Position numbers and translations under genes: made by a program. The notes below the pieces were generated by a model, which saw only the letters and a list, made by a program, of their open reading frames with translations, did not search any database and was not told the DNA's origin. DNA of 64,000 nt from Patescibacteria group bacterium (GTDB lineage Bacteria > Patescibacteriota > Patescibacteriia > UBA2196): the NCBI GenBank assembly GCA_036845805.1, contig DAIUDD010000001.1:628-64627 (forward strand), written 5' to 3'. Each line of letters begins with the position of its first letter. Within the stretch, counting starts at the first letter, position 1. Positions 5,012 through 63,357 of the stretch are shown piece by piece.

Positions 5012-8000
5012 ATGTTTAGGATTCTTTGGTCATTAATTAACCTTAATGCCAGGAAAATATTTTCGCTGACACTTTTTTGTGCCAGCGTTTTTGTTTTTAT
5101 TGTGTTATTATTTTCTAATTATGTTCAAGCCGCCAGCACGGAAGTTTATGGGGTAATGACTACCGATCAGGTTTGGGATAAGGCTCATTCACCCTATGTG
5201 ATTAGTTGGCGCGGTAATGGTTTGATTATTCAAGCAAAATTAACTATTTTGCCTGGCACAGTAATTAAAATTTATGCTAATCGCAATTGGAACGAATATT
5301 TCGGTTTAAAAATTGATGGCGCTAATGGTGGCCAATTGATTGCCGAAGGTACTATCGAAGAACCAATAATTTTTACTTCTTGGTATGATGACGAAATAAT
5401 GGGTGATACCAATAATGACGCTACTTGGTATCAAGCGCCCCAATCCGGTGATTATCGCGCACTTAATTTTTATCAAACAAATAATTCTCATTTAGAAAAT
5501 GTCATTATTAAATATGGTGGCACAGCTCGTAATAATAACAGTACAATTTTGGTAGATAATTCCATTATTAATTTTAATAATTTGAAATTAATAAAAAATT
5601 TGCAGCCAGGAATTGTACTCAAAAACAATAGTCAGGCCACAATAGAAAATCTTGAGGCCGTCGAAAATAAAAATGAAATTTTGCAACTTTATGACGCCAG
5701 TAAGGCAATTTTTGATAATTCTTTAGTGCATAATAATTTTGGTAATAGTGTAATTAAAATTTCTGCCGCGGCTGATTTGTCTGGCACTAATAATTCTTTT
5801 ATTGATAATAGTAATCAAAAAATAATTATTAGCCCCTACGATATTAATCAAACGGTAACTTGGCGAAAATTTGATTTACCATATTATTTAGAAGGACAAA
5901 TTAAAATTACACCCACTGGCCAATTAAATATTAATGCTGGAGTAGAAGCACATTTTGGTTATTATTACAGCCGACTTTTTAATTTAGGCGAATTAAATAT
6001 TATGGGAGCCGCGGCTGCTCCAGTTGTTTTTACTTCTTTCTCTAATAATGCCAGCATTAATAATGATTTTTGGGGTGGCGTGGTTTTTGAAGCGGGCAGC
6101 CGCGGTCAAATTAATTATTTAACCATTAAAGACGCTGGCACTTATGCCGCTGATTGGACCGGTAGTACTTATTTAACTAATGAATATAATGCTTTACGCA
6201 TTACTTCAGCGCATCCAGAATTTAATCATTTAACCATTGATAGCAGTAAAATTAATGGTTTAAACATTACTGATTCTAGCGCACCAGTTATTAATCACTG
6301 TGATATAAAAAATAATTTACAATGGGGTGCAATTAGCAATTCTTCTGCTTTGGTAACTTTTAATAAGTGTTCTTTTATTAACAATACTGCTGGTGCCTTA
6401 CGAAATGATAGCCAAGTGGTGGTTGATGCGCGTGATAGTTGGTGGGGGAGCGAGACTGGACCGAAAACCGGCATTCATTCGCAAGGTCAAGGCTCTCAAA
6501 TTCAAGGCTTGGTTGTTTATGAACCATGGCAGGGCAAAGAAAATTTGCCATTTTCTGATTTAGAACCGGTTATTGTGATCCCGGGCATTACTGGTTCATG
6601 GCAAAAATATATTGTCGCTGGTGAATGGCGCTTGGATCCATTTTTTCATACTTATGATAATTTATTAGCTGCTTTGCGTCAGATTGGTTATCAAGATGAT
6701 GTTAATTTGTTTCCTTTTCCCTATCAATGGCGCCAAGATAATAATTTAACAGCCATTGATTTAAAAAACAAAATCCAAACAGTAAAAAATATTACTGGTA
6801 AAAACAAAGTTGATCTAATAGCTCATTCCATGGGTGGTTTAATAGCACGCGCCTACATTCAAAGCGCCGATTATATGAATGATGTAGATCAGTTAATATT
6901 TCTTGGCACCCCGCAAACTGGTTCGGTTAATGCCTATGTGCCGTGGATGAGTGGCTTAAATTTAGTCAAAGGCAAGAGTGATATTTTTCCACGTTTAACA
7001 AATAAAATTTTTCAGATCGAAGCAGATTATTATGGCTATAATGATTTATTTAATTATGTTCAGGACAAAATTAAAAGTGTAGCACAATTATTGCCAATTT
7101 TTGATTATTTAATTGACAATGAAACAAATATTTTAAGAATTTATCCTGATAATTATCCAGCCAATACTTTTTTAGAAAATTTAAACCAAGCAGCTAATGT
7201 TTTAAAATTAAAACAGCGCGTGCAAATGACTAATGTGGTTAGTAAAACCACCATTACCAATACCGTGGAATTTTTAAAAGTAATGCCTTATCTTGGCGCT
7301 GATGGTAAATGGCCATATGGTTATCCTAATAATTATGATAATGCTAGCGGCGATCATGGTTTAATTATGGGTGAAGGTGATGAAACCGTACCTTTAAAAA
7401 GCGCGGCTGATTTGGATATTTATCCTTTTATTCAAAGTGATGCTAAACACGTTAATTTGCCTACTACTAATCAAAATGACGTTATTTACGCTTTAACTGG
7501 TAAGCAGCCTACCACTATTGTGGAACAAAATAATTTTAATGGTTCAAGCGTCATCAAAGCCTTTTTATTATTTACTTTACATTCACCCATTGATATTGAA
7601 ATCATTGATCCTAGTGGTAATAAAATTGGCAAGGATTTTAATAATAATCTTGAAATTAATAATATTCCCGGCGGTTTTTATTCTGGTTTTGACGGTCCGA
7701 CTGAATTTATTTTTATTCCTAATCCTTTGGCTGGCGAATATAAAATAAATTTACAAGGCACTGCTGATGGCGCTTATGGCGTGGAAATAAATTATAATAA
7801 TGAAAACCAAGAAAAAAATATTATTTTTGAAAGCACTATTCGCGCCGGCGAACTAATTAATTTAACCAGTAATTTGGAACCAGCCAATTTAGATAATTGG
7901 CAAATAAAAACTTCGGTTGATATTAACCAAATTATTAATCTAGCCGAAAATATTTGGTATAAATATTTATGGGCAAAGAAAATTGTTTTGGTTTCTTTAC

Positions 8001-26563: not shown

Positions 26564-27256
26564 ATGCTCTACCTTGTTGCCACTCCGATTGGTAATTTAA
26601 AAGATATCACTCTTCGCGCTTTGGAAATTTTAAAGAGTGTTGATTTCATTTTATGCGAGGATACTCGTGTGACCAGAAAACTTCTCGATCATTATGAAAT
26701 AAAAAATAAAAAATTGATTGCTTATCATCATCATACTGATGCTAAAAAAACTGCCGAAATCATTGAATTAATTAAAAATAATAATGTGGCTTTGGTCACC
26801 GATGCGGGCACCCCTGGTATTTCCGATCCCGGCAATATTTTAATTGCCGCGCTTGCAGGGACAGGTTTTGACCTGTCCGCTGTGTCTGTCATTCCTATTC
26901 CCGGTCCCTCTGCTTTAATTACCGCACTTTCTATTTCTGGCTTACCTACAGATAAATTTATTTTTAAAGGTTTTGTGCCGCACAAAAAAGGCCGGGAAAC
27001 TTTTTTAAGACAAGTTTTAGAAGCCAAAGAGACAGTTGTTTTTTATGAATCATGTCATCGAATAATAAAGTGTCTAGAACAATTAAATTTATTTTGTAGG
27101 GACAGGTCTCGACCTGTCCAAATGGTTGTCTGCCGCGAACTGACCAAAAAATTTGAAACTATTTATCGCGGCACTGCCGAAGAAATCCTCGCGCAAATAA
27201 AAAAGGAGTTCCCGAACGGAACCCCAAAAGGTGAATTTGTGATCATTTCACAATAA
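26564..27256 (+). CDS. rsmI: 16S rRNA (cytidine1402-2'-O)-methyltransferase RsmI, with two in-frame palindromic insertions
   Basis: LYLVATPIGNLKDIT, ILCEDTR, DAGTPGISDPG, FYESCHR and RELTKKFE. Insertions at 26858-26878 and 27096-27119 encode GTGFDLS and CRDRSRPVQ. Confidence 0.85.
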   Translation: MLYLVATPIGNLKDITLRALEILKSVDFILCEDTRVTRKLLDHYEIKNKKLIAYHHHTDAKKTAEIIELIKNNNVALVTDAGTPGISDPGNILIAALAGTGFDLSAVSVIPIPGPSALITALSISGLPTDKFIFKGFVPHKKGRETFLRQVLEAKETVVFYESCHRIIKCLEQLNLFCRDRSRPVQMVVCRELTKKFETIYRGTAEEILAQIKKEFPNGTPKGEFVIISQ

Positions 27257-34595: not shown

Positions 34596-34650
34596 ATTTC
34601 TCTAATATTTTATTCCTTTAGTCCTCTATTTTTTTCTTCTCTGTGTTTTT

Positions 34651-34705
34651 ATTCTTAAATCACCTGCCCGCTATCGCTACGCTCAAGCGTTGCTGGCGGG
34701 TAAAT
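34651..34705 (+). repeat. Conserved GC-rich box, copy 1; identical copy at 38856-38910
   Basis: cttaaatcacctgcccgctatcgctacgctcaagcgttgctggcgggtaaat is identical in both copies, each about 75-100 bp upstream of a start codon (secD and ORF 38963). Confidence 0.75.
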
Positions 34706-34778
34706 CTTAAATCTTTTCTCTCTTTTGTCTTACTATTTGACACATTTTTGCCTTTATTCTAAAATATAAGTAATCTTT

Positions 34779-38754: not shown

Positions 38755-38855
38755 TTAACATGGCTGCCGAGCAATCGGTGTCTTTTCTATTTAATATTTT
38801 TGAAGGCGAGGTTCCAGAACCTCGCCTTCATTGTTTATTAGCCATCTATTCTTAA

Positions 38856-38910
38856 ATCTTAAATCACCTGCCCGCTATCGCTACGCTCAAGCGTTGCTGG
38901 CGGGTAAATT
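38856..38910 (+). repeat. Conserved GC-rich box, copy 2
   Basis: Identical 51-mer to 34651-34705; a palindrome gaaggcgaggttccagaacctcgccttc lies just upstream at 38806-38833. Confidence 0.75.
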
Positions 38911-38962
38911 TTAGATTTTTCTCTTGTTTTTATTTTAATGTTTTTATGTTATAATATTAACT

Positions 38963-42264: not shown

Positions 42265-42693
42265 ATGAAAATCCTTGCTCTCGACTATGGCGTTAAAAAT
42301 ATTGGCCTTGCCCTCACCGATGTTGAGGGCAATTTTGCTTTTGCCTATGACACCTTGCGCGTAGAGACACAAAATTTTGCGTCTCTACAAAAAATAATTG
42401 CTGATTTAAAAAATATTTGTGCTAAAGAAAAAGTGGAGAAAATAATTATTGGCTTGCCCGTACAATTATCTGGAGAAAATAGTTCTGCTACTGTGGCCGT
42501 GTTTGAGTTTGTTAAACAACTAGAGCAGGGGATAGGTTTGCCAGTAGAAACCATTGATGAGCGCTGGAGCACCATGCAAGCTCACAAAATTAGTAGGGAC
42601 AGGTCGCGACCTGTCCGTGCCAATAATATCGATGCTCTTTCCGCCCAAATTTTATTGCAAGGGTATTTAGAAAAAATAAGAATTACTAATTAA
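42265..42693 (+). CDS. ruvX: Putative pre-16S rRNA nuclease / Holliday junction resolvase-like RuvX (YqgF), with in-frame 24-bp palindrome
   Basis: MKILALDYGVKNIGLALTD and RNase H-like fold. The insertion SRDRSRPVR is encoded by 42593-42616. Confidence 0.8.
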   Translation: MKILALDYGVKNIGLALTDVEGNFAFAYDTLRVETQNFASLQKIIADLKNICAKEKVEKIIIGLPVQLSGENSSATVAVFEFVKQLEQGIGLPVETIDERWSTMQAHKISRDRSRPVRANNIDALSAQILLQGYLEKIRITN

Positions 42694-59264: not shown

Positions 59265-59295
59265 GTAGGGACAGGTCGCGACCTGTCCTGTTTTT
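59265..59295 (+). terminator. Intrinsic terminator formed by the 20-bp palindrome GGACAGGTCGCGACCTGTCC plus T-tract
   Basis: gtagggacaggtcgcgacctgtcctgtttttt lies 2 nt after the stop of the 58571-59263 gene. The same palindrome occurs inside rsmI and ruvX. Confidence 0.7.
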
Positions 59296-60247: not shown

Positions 60248-61507
60248 ATGGATCTCTTTACTGATCATTATCAAAAAAATTGGCGCACTACCGCTCCTTT
60301 AGCCGAACGGCTTCGACCAACAAAACTGGAAGATTTTGTTGGGCAAGAAGAAATTGTCGGCCCCAATTCTTTATTACGAAAAGATATTGCTGCCAATCAG
60401 TTAAGTTCTTTAATTTTTTGGGGCCCGCCCGGGAGTGGTAAAACTACGCTAGCGACCGTGATTGCCAATTTGACCAAATCTTTTTTTATTGAAATTTCAG
60501 CCGTCTCTGCTGGCATTACTGATTTACGCACCGCGATTAAGCAAGCCGCTGACCAAATAAAATTTTATCAGCGTCCAACAATTTTATTTGTTGATGAAAT
60601 TCATCGCTGGAATAAAGCCCAGCAAGATGCTCTCTTGCCTTATGTGGAAAAGGGTCTGATAATTTTAATTGGTGCGACCACTGAAAATCCTTCTTTTGAA
60701 GTGATTGCCCCTTTATTGTCTCGGGTTAGAATTTTTACTCTAAAACCTCTCACGCCCTTAAATTTAAAAATTATTATTAATCGAGCCCTAAAAGACGAAA
60801 TTAACGGTCTTGGTAAATATCGGGCCAAAATAGATCCAGCAGCAGAAAATTTTTTAATTCAAACCAGCAATGGTGATGCGCGTGTTATGCTTAATGTTTT
60901 GGAAGTTGCTATTAAAAATTGCGCTTTAGATAAATTTGATGAGCGTCTGATTGATATTAATTTAATTTCCGAAGCTTTTCAACATCCACCACTTAAATAT
61001 GATAAATCTGGCGAAGAACATTATAATGTTATTTCTGCTTTTATTAAATCAATGCGCGGTTCAGATGTTGATGCTGCTCTTTATTGGTTGGCGCGCTTAC
61101 TTACCGCTGGCGAAGATCCAAAATTTATTGCTCGGCGGATGATTATTTTTTCTTCGGAAGATATTGGTAATGCCGACTCTATGGCTCTCGTGGTAGCCAA
61201 TGCCGTTTTTTCGGCTGTAGAAAAAATTGGTTTGCCCGAATGCCGTATTAATTTGGCCCAGGGGGTGGTTTATTTAGCCAAGGCACCCAAGTCTAACAAG
61301 TCCTATCTTGGTCTTTTAAACGCCGAGGCCGAAGTGAAACAAAGTTTAAACTTGCCCGTGCCTTTGCATTTGCGTAATGCCGTCACCAATTTAATGAAAG
61401 AATGGGGTTATGGCGAGAATTATAAATATCCGCATTTGGAAGATGATTCAGCGCAAAAATATCTGCCGGATAAGTTGATTGGCAAAAAATTTTATCATGA
61501 TTTGTAA
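60248..61507 (+). CDS. rarA: Replication-associated recombination protein A (RarA/MgsA AAA+ ATPase)
   Basis: RPTKLEDFVGQEEIVG, Walker A GPPGSGKTTLA, FVDEIHRWNKAQQD and the MgsA C-terminal domain. Confidence 0.9.
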   Translation: MDLFTDHYQKNWRTTAPLAERLRPTKLEDFVGQEEIVGPNSLLRKDIAANQLSSLIFWGPPGSGKTTLATVIANLTKSFFIEISAVSAGITDLRTAIKQAADQIKFYQRPTILFVDEIHRWNKAQQDALLPYVEKGLIILIGATTENPSFEVIAPLLSRVRIFTLKPLTPLNLKIIINRALKDEINGLGKYRAKIDPAAENFLIQTSNGDARVMLNVLEVAIKNCALDKFDERLIDINLISEAFQHPPLKYDKSGEEHYNVISAFIKSMRGSDVDAALYWLARLLTAGEDPKFIARRMIIFSSEDIGNADSMALVVANAVFSAVEKIGLPECRINLAQGVVYLAKAPKSNKSYLGLLNAEAEVKQSLNLPVPLHLRNAVTNLMKEWGYGENYKYPHLEDDSAQKYLPDKLIGKKFYHDL

Positions 61508-61612
61508 CTCCGAACTTTAGTTCGGATAGTTTTTATCATGATTTGTAACTCCGAACTTTAGTTCGGATAGTTGTTATATCTTGTAACTCCGAACTTTAGT
61601 TCGGAATTCATA
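61504..61612 (+). repeat. Three tandem REP hairpins (tgtaactccgaactttagttcgga), including a duplication of the last rarA codons
   Basis: The 41-bp unit tttatcatgatttgtaactccgaactttagttcggatagtt is repeated. Palindromic core ccgaact-tt-agttcgg. A fourth copy lies at 62346-62369. Confidence 0.8.
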
Positions 61613-61616
61613 ATAT

Positions 61617-62093
61617 ATGAAATATCTAAATTTACCCATACGCCCGCGCTTACCACACACAGAATATATCGGTCAAAAAAGATATTTTATTACTATTAAT
61701 TCTTTTAATCGAAAAAACTATTTTGTTGATAAAAAAATAATTTCTTTTATAAAACCTCATTTGTTTGAAAGTTTAAAGAGTTATAATTTTGAAGTTTGGA
61801 TTTTTCTTTTTATGCCCGATCATTTGCATCTATTATTAGAAGCTAAAGATATAAATTGTAATTTAGAAAATTTTATTAAAGATTTTAAACAAAAATCTAG
61901 TTATTGTTTTAAAAAAATTTTTCGGCAAAGATTATGGGCCAAAAGTTATTGGGATCATATTTTAAGAAAAGACGAGGATATTACCGGTATAGTTTATTAT
62001 ATTTTGTATAATCCCGTGAGAAAAGGATTGATTAAGGACTGGAAGGAATATCAATGGTGGGGTTCCACGCTTTTTAAAAAAGATGAATTTTAA
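61617..62093 (+). CDS. REP-associated tyrosine transposase (RAYT; IS200/IS605 TnpA-like, Y1 HUH)
   Basis: HUH motif MPDHLHLLLEA and catalytic Tyr motif YILYNPVRKGL; 158 aa; flanked by REPs. Confidence 0.8.
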   Translation: MKYLNLPIRPRLPHTEYIGQKRYFITINSFNRKNYFVDKKIISFIKPHLFESLKSYNFEVWIFLFMPDHLHLLLEAKDINCNLENFIKDFKQKSSYCFKKIFRQRLWAKSYWDHILRKDEDITGIVYYILYNPVRKGLIKDWKEYQWWGSTLFKKDEF

Positions 62094-62345
62094 TCCCATC
62101 TAAAGATGGGAGTTACATTCCGGCCTAAAGGCCGGAGTTACATTTTAAAAACCACCACGCGTTGACATGATGGTTTTTTTAATCTTCACCTTACCCCCTG
62201 TTAGCGCAAGATCAAAACAGGAAAACCTGCTTAACCTTGACTTAGACTACTCGATCTAGCTAGGAGGAAGCCGTCACTTTGGTCACTAAACAAGGGGAAA
62301 GGTAAAGATTATGATTTTGAACCTTTGTTCAGAAGTATTATGTCT

Positions 62346-62369
62346 TGTAACTCCGAACTTTAGTTCGGA
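62346..62369 (+). repeat. REP copy downstream of the RAYT gene
   Basis: tgtaactccgaactttagttcgga. Confidence 0.8.
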
Positions 62370-62497: not shown

Positions 62498-63357
62498 CTA
62501 GAAGTCAAGTGGATCATCAAGACACAACTGACCCTGTCCTTCATCTTCGAGTAGATCGTATTCGTCCCCCCCTTTTGGCAGTCGTATTCTTAACAATCCT
62601 TTTCCTCGCGGTTTATGATTTTTTTTCCGGCCGTGATAATGCCGGTGGTTTAAGGCTCTTTCTACATCTCCCCACGTTTCTTGAGAAGTAAAAAGGTCTG
62701 GTTCCGGTGGTTTTTGTGTTAAGCCCGCTGGATTTTTTGCTGGCGGAAACTTTTTTCTTCTGTATCCTGGCGGTTCTAGATCTTTATAAATTACATCTTT
62801 CCAAACCGCCATTTTTAATCTTTCGTGCCATAAAAAATGTTTTCGTGCCGCTAAGCGCATTAGCACAAAAACATCTCTGGCCACCCGAGTTTCCGTGATG
62901 TGGGGTTTGCCCAAAATTCCCCTTTGCCCCGTGCTTGTTATTCGTCGCGGGTTTTTTTGGTCTTTTTGAAAAATCATCCACTGTTTTGTTTTTTGCCAGA
63001 CCACGCCCACCTTTTTTATATCAATTTCTTTTAGGCCTGGCGATCTGACAAATTTTGTTAAAAAGACCTTCCCGTTAATTTCTATGGTCCTGATTTGCCC
63101 CAAATCAAGACCTGATTCTTTTTCCGTTTTCATCTGCCCTTCTTTCAAAAAATCCCGCATTAAAGCGGGGTTTAATCGTTCCACCAATCACGGCCGCGGC
63201 CCCCCTTTCTTTTTTGTGGAGGTGATGGATTTTTTCTTTTCCATTCAGCTCTCTCTCTCTTTCTTTCTTCTTTTTCTTTTTTAATTCTTCTCTCAATTTT
63301 TTTTCGCTCTTCAATTTTTGCGGCTTCCTCTGGAAACAAATCCGCTTGTTTTGTCAT
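62498..63357 (-). pseudogene. GC-rich gene of unknown function, apparently split by a frameshift (KR-rich 61-aa N-terminal ORF plus 229-aa ORF)
   Basis: Strong aaggagg RBS before the ATG at 63357. Frames switch at 63172-63187 next to homopolymers (aaaaaag, gggggg). Lys/Arg-rich N-terminus; GC is well above background. Confidence 0.35.

Follow-up and report, generated by a model that had tools for sequence, protein, structure and literature searches.

A probable REPtron with compact hairpins downstream of rarA in a Patescibacterium related to Kuenenbacteria

What kind of element is formed by a small transposase-like gene set among repeated hairpins directly behind rarA in a Patescibacterium? 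The stretch analysed here, hereafter the window, comprises 64,000 nt of contig DAIUDD010000001.1 (assembly GCA_036845805.1, positions 628 to 64,627), and its host is related to Kuenenbacteria, to whose proteins its RarA, DprA and TopA are 61-68% identical. The family hidden Markov model (HMM), the predicted fold and the catalytic residues, together with hairpins that flank the gene in inverted orientation and recur in design at homologous genes, suggest that the locus is very probably a REPtron, a single-copy chromosomal gene encoding a REP-associated tyrosine transposase (RAYT), an HUH/Y1 single-stranded DNA (ssDNA) endonuclease, bracketed by its cognate repetitive extragenic palindromic (REP) hairpins. 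RAYT/REP systems have been characterised mainly in Proteobacteria, Cyanobacteria and Bacteroidetes, and we came across no published case from Patescibacteria in our literature search. A streamlined genome, probably smaller than 1 Mb, would then retain an intact REPtron. The practical value lies in annotation and in a testable recognition code; the mechanism itself is not new.

Membership in the RAYT family of the 158-amino acid (aa) open reading frame (ORF) is secure, because HMM score, Protein Data Bank (PDB) sequence match, fold and conserved residues all agree. A preliminary description, made from the sequence alone, had recognised HUH and Tyr motifs in this ORF, which we read as D68-H69-L70-H71 and Y127-Y128-I-L-Y-N132-P-V-R-K-G, and its assignment holds on every line: the ORF aligns with the Y1 family (Pfam Y1_Tnp, PF01797, E 8.6e-11) and scores 96.5 bits with the NCBIfam equivalog NF047646, 'REP-associated tyrosine transposase', above the family cutoff of 80 bits, whereas the IS200 model NF033573 gives 28.7 bits, under its cutoff of 55. 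The top PDB match by sequence is 4ER8, the E. coli TnpA_REP in complex with a REP hairpin (E 3.6e-8), whose HUH (HMH), Y115 and N119 align with H69/H71, Y128 and N132 of the window protein. Similarly, an AlphaFold2 model built on 25 homologues (pLDDT 92.9) yielded a predicted fold for which Foldseek placed 4ER8 first in the PDB (TM 0.75, E 7e-11), with IS200, IS608 and ISDra2 at TM 0.52-0.57. Across these 25 homologues M66, P67, D68, H69, H71, K91, W107 and R117 are fully conserved, Y128 and N132 are kept in at least 90%, and I129, P133 and V134 are likewise near-invariant. By alignment, Y128 is assigned as the catalytic Tyr and H69/H71 as the metal-binding HUH.

The gene stands among six REPs (Table 1), each built from a TGTAAC head and a hairpin with a stem of 7 bp and a TTTA loop. 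The 24-mer TGTAACTCCGAACTTTAGTTCGGA is exact in REP1, REP2, REP3 and REP6, all on the plus strand, and was matched in 0 of 100 shuffles. These are the three upstream copies and the one downstream copy that had been counted before; the inverted REP4 and REP5 had been missed, so that the total rises to six, and the feature, placed at 61504-62369, had been started one base late and the candidate structured RNA gene inside it overlooked. In REP4 and REP5 the head, which reads TGTAAC on their own strand, is retained along with the closing pairs and the loop (TTTA), while their stem interiors are fully compensated, giving three stem subtypes at the locus in the order (+)(+)(+) gene (-)(-), 203 nt, (+). 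The RAYT gene is thus flanked on both sides by mutually inverted REPs, REP1-3 against REP4-5, with an arm complementarity of 83-85%, and the heads of the upstream direct copies are distal to the gene. No tail-to-tail REP doublet, the arrangement of a bacterial interspersed mosaic element (BIME) or REPIN, was found in the window. All six REPs and a 41-bp duplication that accompanies them are present in 8/8 independently assembled metagenome contigs spanning the locus, with at most one single-nucleotide polymorphism in 1.1 kb, and two further short metagenome contigs start inside the duplication.

Table 1. Features of the RAYT locus and its surroundings (window coordinates)
Feature	Positions	Strand	Description	Basis
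rarA/mgsA, 419 aa	60248-61507	+	upstream neighbour of the probable REPtron	Pfam MgsA_C, AAA_assoc_2, AAA
Tandem duplication	61490-61530 / 61531-61571	+	perfect, 2 x 41 nt	repeat scan, 100% identity
REP1	61503-61526	+	head TGTAAC, stem TCCGAAC, loop TTTA, stem GTTCGGA	exact-copy and hairpin scans
REP2	61544-61567	+	same as REP1; within second duplication unit	exact-copy and repeat scans
REP3	61582-61605	+	core same as REP1; ends 11 nt before RAYT start codon	exact-copy and repeat scans
RAYT / TnpA_REP gene, 158 aa	61617-62093	+		NF047646, PF01797, 4ER8 sequence match, AlphaFold2/Foldseek
REP4	62094-62117	-	inverted; begins at base after RAYT stop; TCCCATC taaa GATGGGA GTTACA	repeat and hairpin scans
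REP5	62119-62142	-	inverted; TCCGGCC taaa GGCCGGA GTTACA	repeat and hairpin scans
Candidate structured small RNA	62147-62311	-	long hairpin 62180-62311 and intrinsic terminator 62147-62180	folding, homologues, covariation
REP6	62346-62369	+	same as REP1-3; 203 nt past REP5, upstream of RNA gene	exact-copy search

Considering that these hairpins closely abut a Y1 transposase gene on either side, that the gene is low in GC and that its presence or absence at the rarA end varies among relatives, the stretch from REP3 through the gene to REP4/5 (~560 bp) might instead be a mobile IS200/IS605-type insertion sequence with subterminal hairpins as its ends. IS200/IS605 TnpA proteins (IS608, ISDra2, IS200) indeed have the HUH/Y1 fold and the chemistry of ssDNA hairpin recognition in common with the window RAYT. 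However, the ORF exceeds the cutoff of the RAYT model and falls short of that for IS200, its modelled fold is nearer to TnpA_REP than to IS200, IS608 or ISDra2 (TM only ~0.55), and the gene is without IS-type left and right ends. Moreover, no second RAYT copy occurs in the window, and, of the 15 contigs carrying the gene, every listed one that extends past it shows unchanged neighbours. The flanking hairpins are also mutually inverted, unlike the IS200/IS605 arrangement; IS608, for instance, has its two ends read on one and the same strand. Given the HMM scores, the modelled fold, the copy number and the orientation of the hairpins, we rejected an IS200-type insertion sequence and hold the IS200/IS605 reading to be very unlikely.

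A second alternative is that the hairpins have nothing to do with the function of the enzyme and simply terminate transcription of rarA and the RAYT gene or stabilise their mRNAs. In fact, when scored as terminators (a stem and then a T-rich tail), REP1, REP2, REP5 and REP6 are terminator-like, four found against 1.2 expected. Against this, the head-stem-loop design recurs with different stems at homologous RAYTs in six other loci and even within a RAYT coding sequence (L091), and the conserved 5' TGTA(A/G)C head is foreign to terminators. We consider such a role alone very improbable, bearing in mind that terminator function and REP identity are compatible and not mutually exclusive.

That the hairpins are cognate REPs of the RAYT is further suggested by the loci of homologous RAYTs with 33-64% identity (L080, L082/L083, L084, L085 and L091). 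All are flanked by the same design, consisting of a GTA(G/A)C or GTAGG head and a stem of 6-7 bp whose C-G pair encloses a TTTA loop, with the head variants GTAG-C, GTAG-G, GTGG-C and some GTAA-C, and with differing stems (TCAGGTC, TCCCAGC, TCCGGCC, GCAAGGC, GGCAACC, GGCGGTC, CAGGGC and GCAGCGC). Aligning 16 of these REPs showed no variation in the head GT or in the loop C-TTTA; the closing G was kept in 15/16, and 6/7 stem pairs carried double changes (covariation score 0.94 against 0.24 in shuffles); these REPs were chosen by a perfect-stem finder, so the percentage of pairing is given by construction and the informative part is the constancy of head and loop on variable stems. As in the window, the proximal upstream REP is on the plus and the proximal downstream REP on the minus strand in 4/5 homologous loci. 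At L091, the locus of the RAYT P0012, a REP doublet and a third REP lie in frame within the RAYT gene, where they encode GFSP (GGC TTT AGC CC), a peptide that is also found in insertions of P0009-P0012 and P0018. The hairpin design accompanies one RAYT clade across many uncultured lineages. The locus defines a compact REP design, with a TGTA(A/G)C head, a 7-bp stem of free sequence and an invariant C-TTTA-G loop, and its variants form a natural mutagenesis series in which recognition by the enzyme probably depends on head and loop and disregards the stem interior.

In the mechanism that we propose, a REP in single-stranded form, for example on the lagging-strand template, would fold into a 7-bp stem with a C-G closing pair and a TTTA loop, and the RAYT would read the loop and the shape of the stem along with the 5' TGTA(A/G)C head. 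His69 and His71 would hold the metal, and Tyr128 would cut beside the head to form a 5'-phosphotyrosine link, after which the strand would be rejoined. In this way REPs or REP doublets could be excised, copied or moved, with the RAYT gene itself staying in position. We infer both catalysis on the window REPs and any current mobility in the host genome.

Of the systems compared, the E. coli K-12 REPtron (TnpA_REP/RayT, YafM; Y and Z2 REPs; 4ER8) is the best sequence and fold match, and similar to the window it has a single-copy HUH/Y1 enzyme of ~160 aa with the DHLH and YI.YNP motifs. Its gene is likewise flanked by inverted REPs, with more than one stem subtype per REPtron (PMC6006769). However, the E. 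coli REPs are long, bulged and GTAG-tagged, whereas the window REP is short, with a 7-bp perfect stem, a 4-nt loop and a GTAA one base from the stem, and E. coli has three REP doublets in its flanks where the window has direct arrays and one inverted pair. The Q95 of E. coli is Ala in the window RAYT. The host differs as well, being a Patescibacterium whose genome is probably smaller than 1 Mb, and no REP dispersal was observed in the ~72 kb of it that were surveyed. The window RAYT has the DH[LF]H motif in common with the Pseudomonas RAYT/REPIN system (Bertels group 3, equal to Quentin subclass 2.5), and similar to that subclass E100 is replaced by Asp; subclass 2.5 also has short REPs, with the tetranucleotide 1-2 nt from the stem and 10-13 nt of foot plus stem, to be compared with 4+1+7 = 12 in the window (PMC6006769). 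The Y motif differs, being YILYNP in the window and YI[VI]ANP in subclass 2.5, a subclass that hardly occurs outside Xanthomonads and Pseudomonads and whose dispersed REPINs number in the hundreds. The DH[LF]H and YIHYNP-like Y motif of Quentin subclass 2.2 resemble the DHLH/YILYNP of the window (PMC6006769). In Quentin subclass 2.4 (Cyanobacteria, Bacteroidetes and others) REPs are inserted in the gene, as in the clade relative P0012 (L091) and, judging from their GFSP peptides, in P0009-P0011 and P0018; the 158-aa gene of the window has no such insertion and carries DHLH, not NH[IFV]H. Based on this motif comparison, the window RAYT shows a mixed resemblance, to subclass 2.2 in its motifs, to 2.5 in its REP geometry and Asp, and to 2.4 through its relatives.

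Several observations weigh against the REPtron reading. All six REPs carry a GTAA-C head and not the canonical GT[AG]G of the GTAG-tagged superfamily, and at the position of E. coli Q95, which contacts GTAG, the window RAYT and its three closest relatives have Ala. As a cause of the GTAA head this Ala was rejected, since there is no clean correlation, P0002 and P0004 having Ala yet GTAG REPs; the window REP is a head variant of the GTAG-tagged REP type. The GC content of the RAYT gene, 0.26, is the lowest among the 42 ORFs of the window (mean 0.386; z = -2.3), about 12 points under the mean, and could reflect a recent and not yet productive acquisition. Finally, no REP copy was found beyond the locus in the other 61 kb of the window plus a further 8 kb (L001). 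In a third alternative the REPtron is non-proliferating, either young or decaying: cassette and hairpins would have arrived by horizontal transfer, the hairpins of this genome would be confined to the locus, local copies would have arisen by slippage or gene conversion, and the RAYT would be inactive, silent or employed in a role other than REP spread. The contrast between zero copies outside the locus in ~71 kb and four copies of a GTAG-GGACAGGTC palindrome in the same window speaks for it, as do the low GC, the 100% identity of 4/6 REP copies, and two relatives of which one, L089, has the same synteny without a RAYT and the other, L088, a different RAYT at the site. On the other side, only ~10% of the genome is visible, the ORF is intact with its catalytic residues complete and identical across the 15 contigs, and the three compensated stem subtypes imply a longer history than one recent amplification. 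The low GC, moreover, is shared by homologous RAYT genes: a deficit of 9-15 points also marks those of five homologous loci (L080, L082, L084, L085 and L088), with 0.22-0.31 against 0.35-0.46 in flanking DNA, which makes it a clade-wide property and no specific sign of recent arrival. We regard a non-proliferating state as a tentative and somewhat unlikely possibility.

How far the REP is dispersed bears on this question. The survey covered ~72 kb, or about 10% of the genome, taking as its minimum size the 722 kb of the longest contig with the RAYT gene, and by our own estimate the Poisson 95% upper bound on REP density outside the locus is ~40 copies per Mb. Dispersal in the host, a defining property of REPs, was not seen in the surveyed ~72 kb. 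We searched other genomes with the degenerate pattern TGTAACTCCNNNCTTTAGNNNGGA, which fixes the head, the loop and 4/7 stem pairs and leaves 3 pairs free, and obtained 21 stretches from species-representative genomes, including 7 contigs of one Kuenenbacteria metagenome-assembled genome (MAG), Lentimicrobium, Omnitrophica and others, and 48 stretches from metagenome contigs, mostly with a GC of 32-40%; some of the matches in other phyla are periodic arrays of a different kind. The free stem positions were fully complementary in 49 of the 65 distinct instances, against 1.6% by chance, with 13 fully complementary stem variants. Tail-to-tail doublets made up 11/65 pattern instances, mostly with a 4-nt gap, and also occur around and inside the P0012 RAYT gene. 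By a test too crude to carry weight, the matches are depleted from stop-free frames of at least 120 codons (51% against 78% of random positions), and no RAYT was found near the dispersed matches within the retrieved stretches of up to ~15 kb. In other genomes the motif family behaves like genuine dispersed REPs/REPINs. The expectation of a genome-wide repeat, on which the preliminary description had made its assignment partly depend, is therefore weakened and not refuted, with no copy outside the locus in ~72 kb and a family dispersed in related genomes.

Several of the retrieved stretches hold related structures. In L023 (4696/5131/5566) and in L019, L011, L012 and L025 (Chlorobiota, Lentimicrobium, Omnitrophica) the same TGTAACTCC...CTTTAG...GGA hairpin sits in longer periodic repeat units, for example with an exact 435-bp period, and is often followed by a second GGGGCTTTAGCCCC hairpin. 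The groundwater contigs L039, L045, L056, L061 and L071 have the REP nested in a longer palindrome, CATGTCAACGTGCTTCT-REP-GAGCACGTTGAGCA; the motif CGTTGACATG is also found in the terminator of the window RNA candidate (62158-62167).

At its upstream side the locus merges with the 3' end of rarA. The last codon and stop of rarA, TTG TAA, overlap the head of REP1, with the stop (61505-61507) inside TGTAAC, and each 41-nt duplication unit consists of TTT TAT CAT GAT TTG TAA (the five C-terminal codons of rarA, for F Y H D L, plus its stop), a REP and TAGT. The tandem repeat had been noticed earlier as a copy of the rarA end, and its two units are indeed 100% identical. An MgsA_C match to 1-149 of 167 had raised the possibility that RarA is truncated by REP insertion; this was ruled out by homologue ends, because the C-termini of Patescibacterial RarA proteins all fall no more than 0-3 residues from one shared KK(F/Y)Y motif. 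The repeat had further been taken to suggest recent REP proliferation by a replicative mechanism, a claim that goes beyond the evidence: slippage fits equally, and the repeat is fixed in every sampled population, being present in every contig spanning it. Slippage over the hairpin suffices for the duplication, because the TTTTAT at the start of the unit and the TGTTAT after the second unit match in 5/6 bases across the hairpin. For the duplication and the identical local array, slippage between hairpins or their unequal exchange is the most likely origin; catalysis by the RAYT is possible, but nothing in the data favours it. Units without a single difference point to a young event or to homogenisation, yet the repeat is fixed in all populations sampled. 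Short direct REP arrays also occur elsewhere, upstream of the P0002 RAYT and in L078.

The same site has a variable history among relatives. The window, L088 (GCA_040961635.1; RarA 67% identical) and L089 (RarA 69% identical) have in common the order aminotransferase / F420-ligase-like ... rarA ... dprA-topA. L089 has no RAYT after rarA and represents an empty site, and L088 has a different RAYT there, of 196 aa (5261-5851), which begins at the base after the rarA stop, carries NHLH and YIYYNP motifs and an in-frame GTAG-REP doublet (5559-5619), and is 23% identical to the window RAYT; with its NHLH and in-gene doublet it fits subclass 2.4 far better than the window RAYT does. The rarA gene ends in TTGTAA, equal to the REP head, in 2/2 RAYT-bearing genomes (window 61502-61507, L088 5255-5260) and in GATTAG, GAATAG, AAATAG or GAGTAG in 4/4 RAYT-less relatives (L086, L087, L089 and L090), a sample of six genomes that is too small for a conclusion. 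At present we can only speculate that in Kuenenbacteria-like Patescibacteria whole RAYT cassettes might repeatedly be directed by sequence to the rarA 3' end, which we think unlikely. If true, REPtrons would be mobile as units, now or recently, and head-targeted, contrary to the current view that RAYT genes do not move and are passed on vertically. Another possibility is that the RAYT may be functionally coupled with the fork protein RarA.

Between REP5 and REP6 lies a second kind of element. The 203-nt spacer (62143-62345) folds on its minus strand with -74.8 kcal/mol (z = -7.07; plus strand z = -2.24), and homologues of the predicted RNA were found in Kuenenbacteria (80% identity over 143 nt), L088 and L089, each near dprA and on the opposite strand where checked (L013 4379-4563 (+), L088 7126-7350 (-), L089 5588-5750 (-)). 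In a four-sequence alignment 12/38 predicted pairs are changed on both sides, and a conserved, predicted unpaired core, AAAGUGA(A/C)GGC..CCUCCUAGC(C/U)AGAUC(G/A)AGUAG, holds an anti-Shine-Dalgarno-like CCUCC. A TTGACA-17-TATGAT promoter stands directly upstream of the RNA in L088. No Rfam family reached its threshold for the spacer RNA, the best scores, Phe_leader with 27.7 bits (gathering 55) and SQ1002 with 23.5 bits (gathering 128), being dismissed as noise, and a scan of viral contigs for the conserved RNA motif gave no match. A conserved small plus-strand ORF in the spacer was considered and dropped, as it is absent in L088. From its fold and conservation this looks like an undescribed small RNA gene, separate from the REPtron, around which REPs have settled, and it may be a more original item at this locus than the REPtron. 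Two basic proteins are encoded between the RNA candidate and dprA, one of 229 aa (62498-63187, -), for which there was no Pfam or NCBIfam match, and one of 61 aa (63172-63357, -). A strong sigma-70-like promoter, TTGACA-17-TATATT (62459-62431, -), lies just downstream of the 229-aa gene.

Other palindromes of the window bear on how many such systems the genome holds. The preliminary description had proposed at least three independent ones; the GTAG-GGACAGGTC (GGACAGG) and TGTCATCC families are real and differ in sequence from the REP, while their independence is only inferred, because one RAYT alone is visible in the window. The first, TGTAGG-GACAGGTC-(2 nt)-GACCTGTC-C, is a canonical GTAG-tagged REP with four dispersed copies (26855-26878, 27096-27119, 42593-42616 and 59265-59288) and no RAYT of its own visible in the window. 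Its architecture is that of the in-gene REPs of the L088-type RAYT, TGTAGG-AACGCGCC-TT-GGCGCGTT-C, and it probably belongs to a second RAYT system with its gene outside the window. Palindromes tagged with TGTCATCC, such as TGTCATCCTCGCGAACGCGAGGATC, are found at window positions 180, 280, 28587, 28627, 30182 and 56512, and also downstream of rarA in L086 (5260-5404) and L089 (5270-5380); no enzyme associated with them was recognised. A 69-nt repeat, 93% identical between 34648-34716 and 38852-38920, includes a palindrome rich in GC, CCTGCCCGC...GCGGGT, with AAATCTTAAATC motifs on its flanks.

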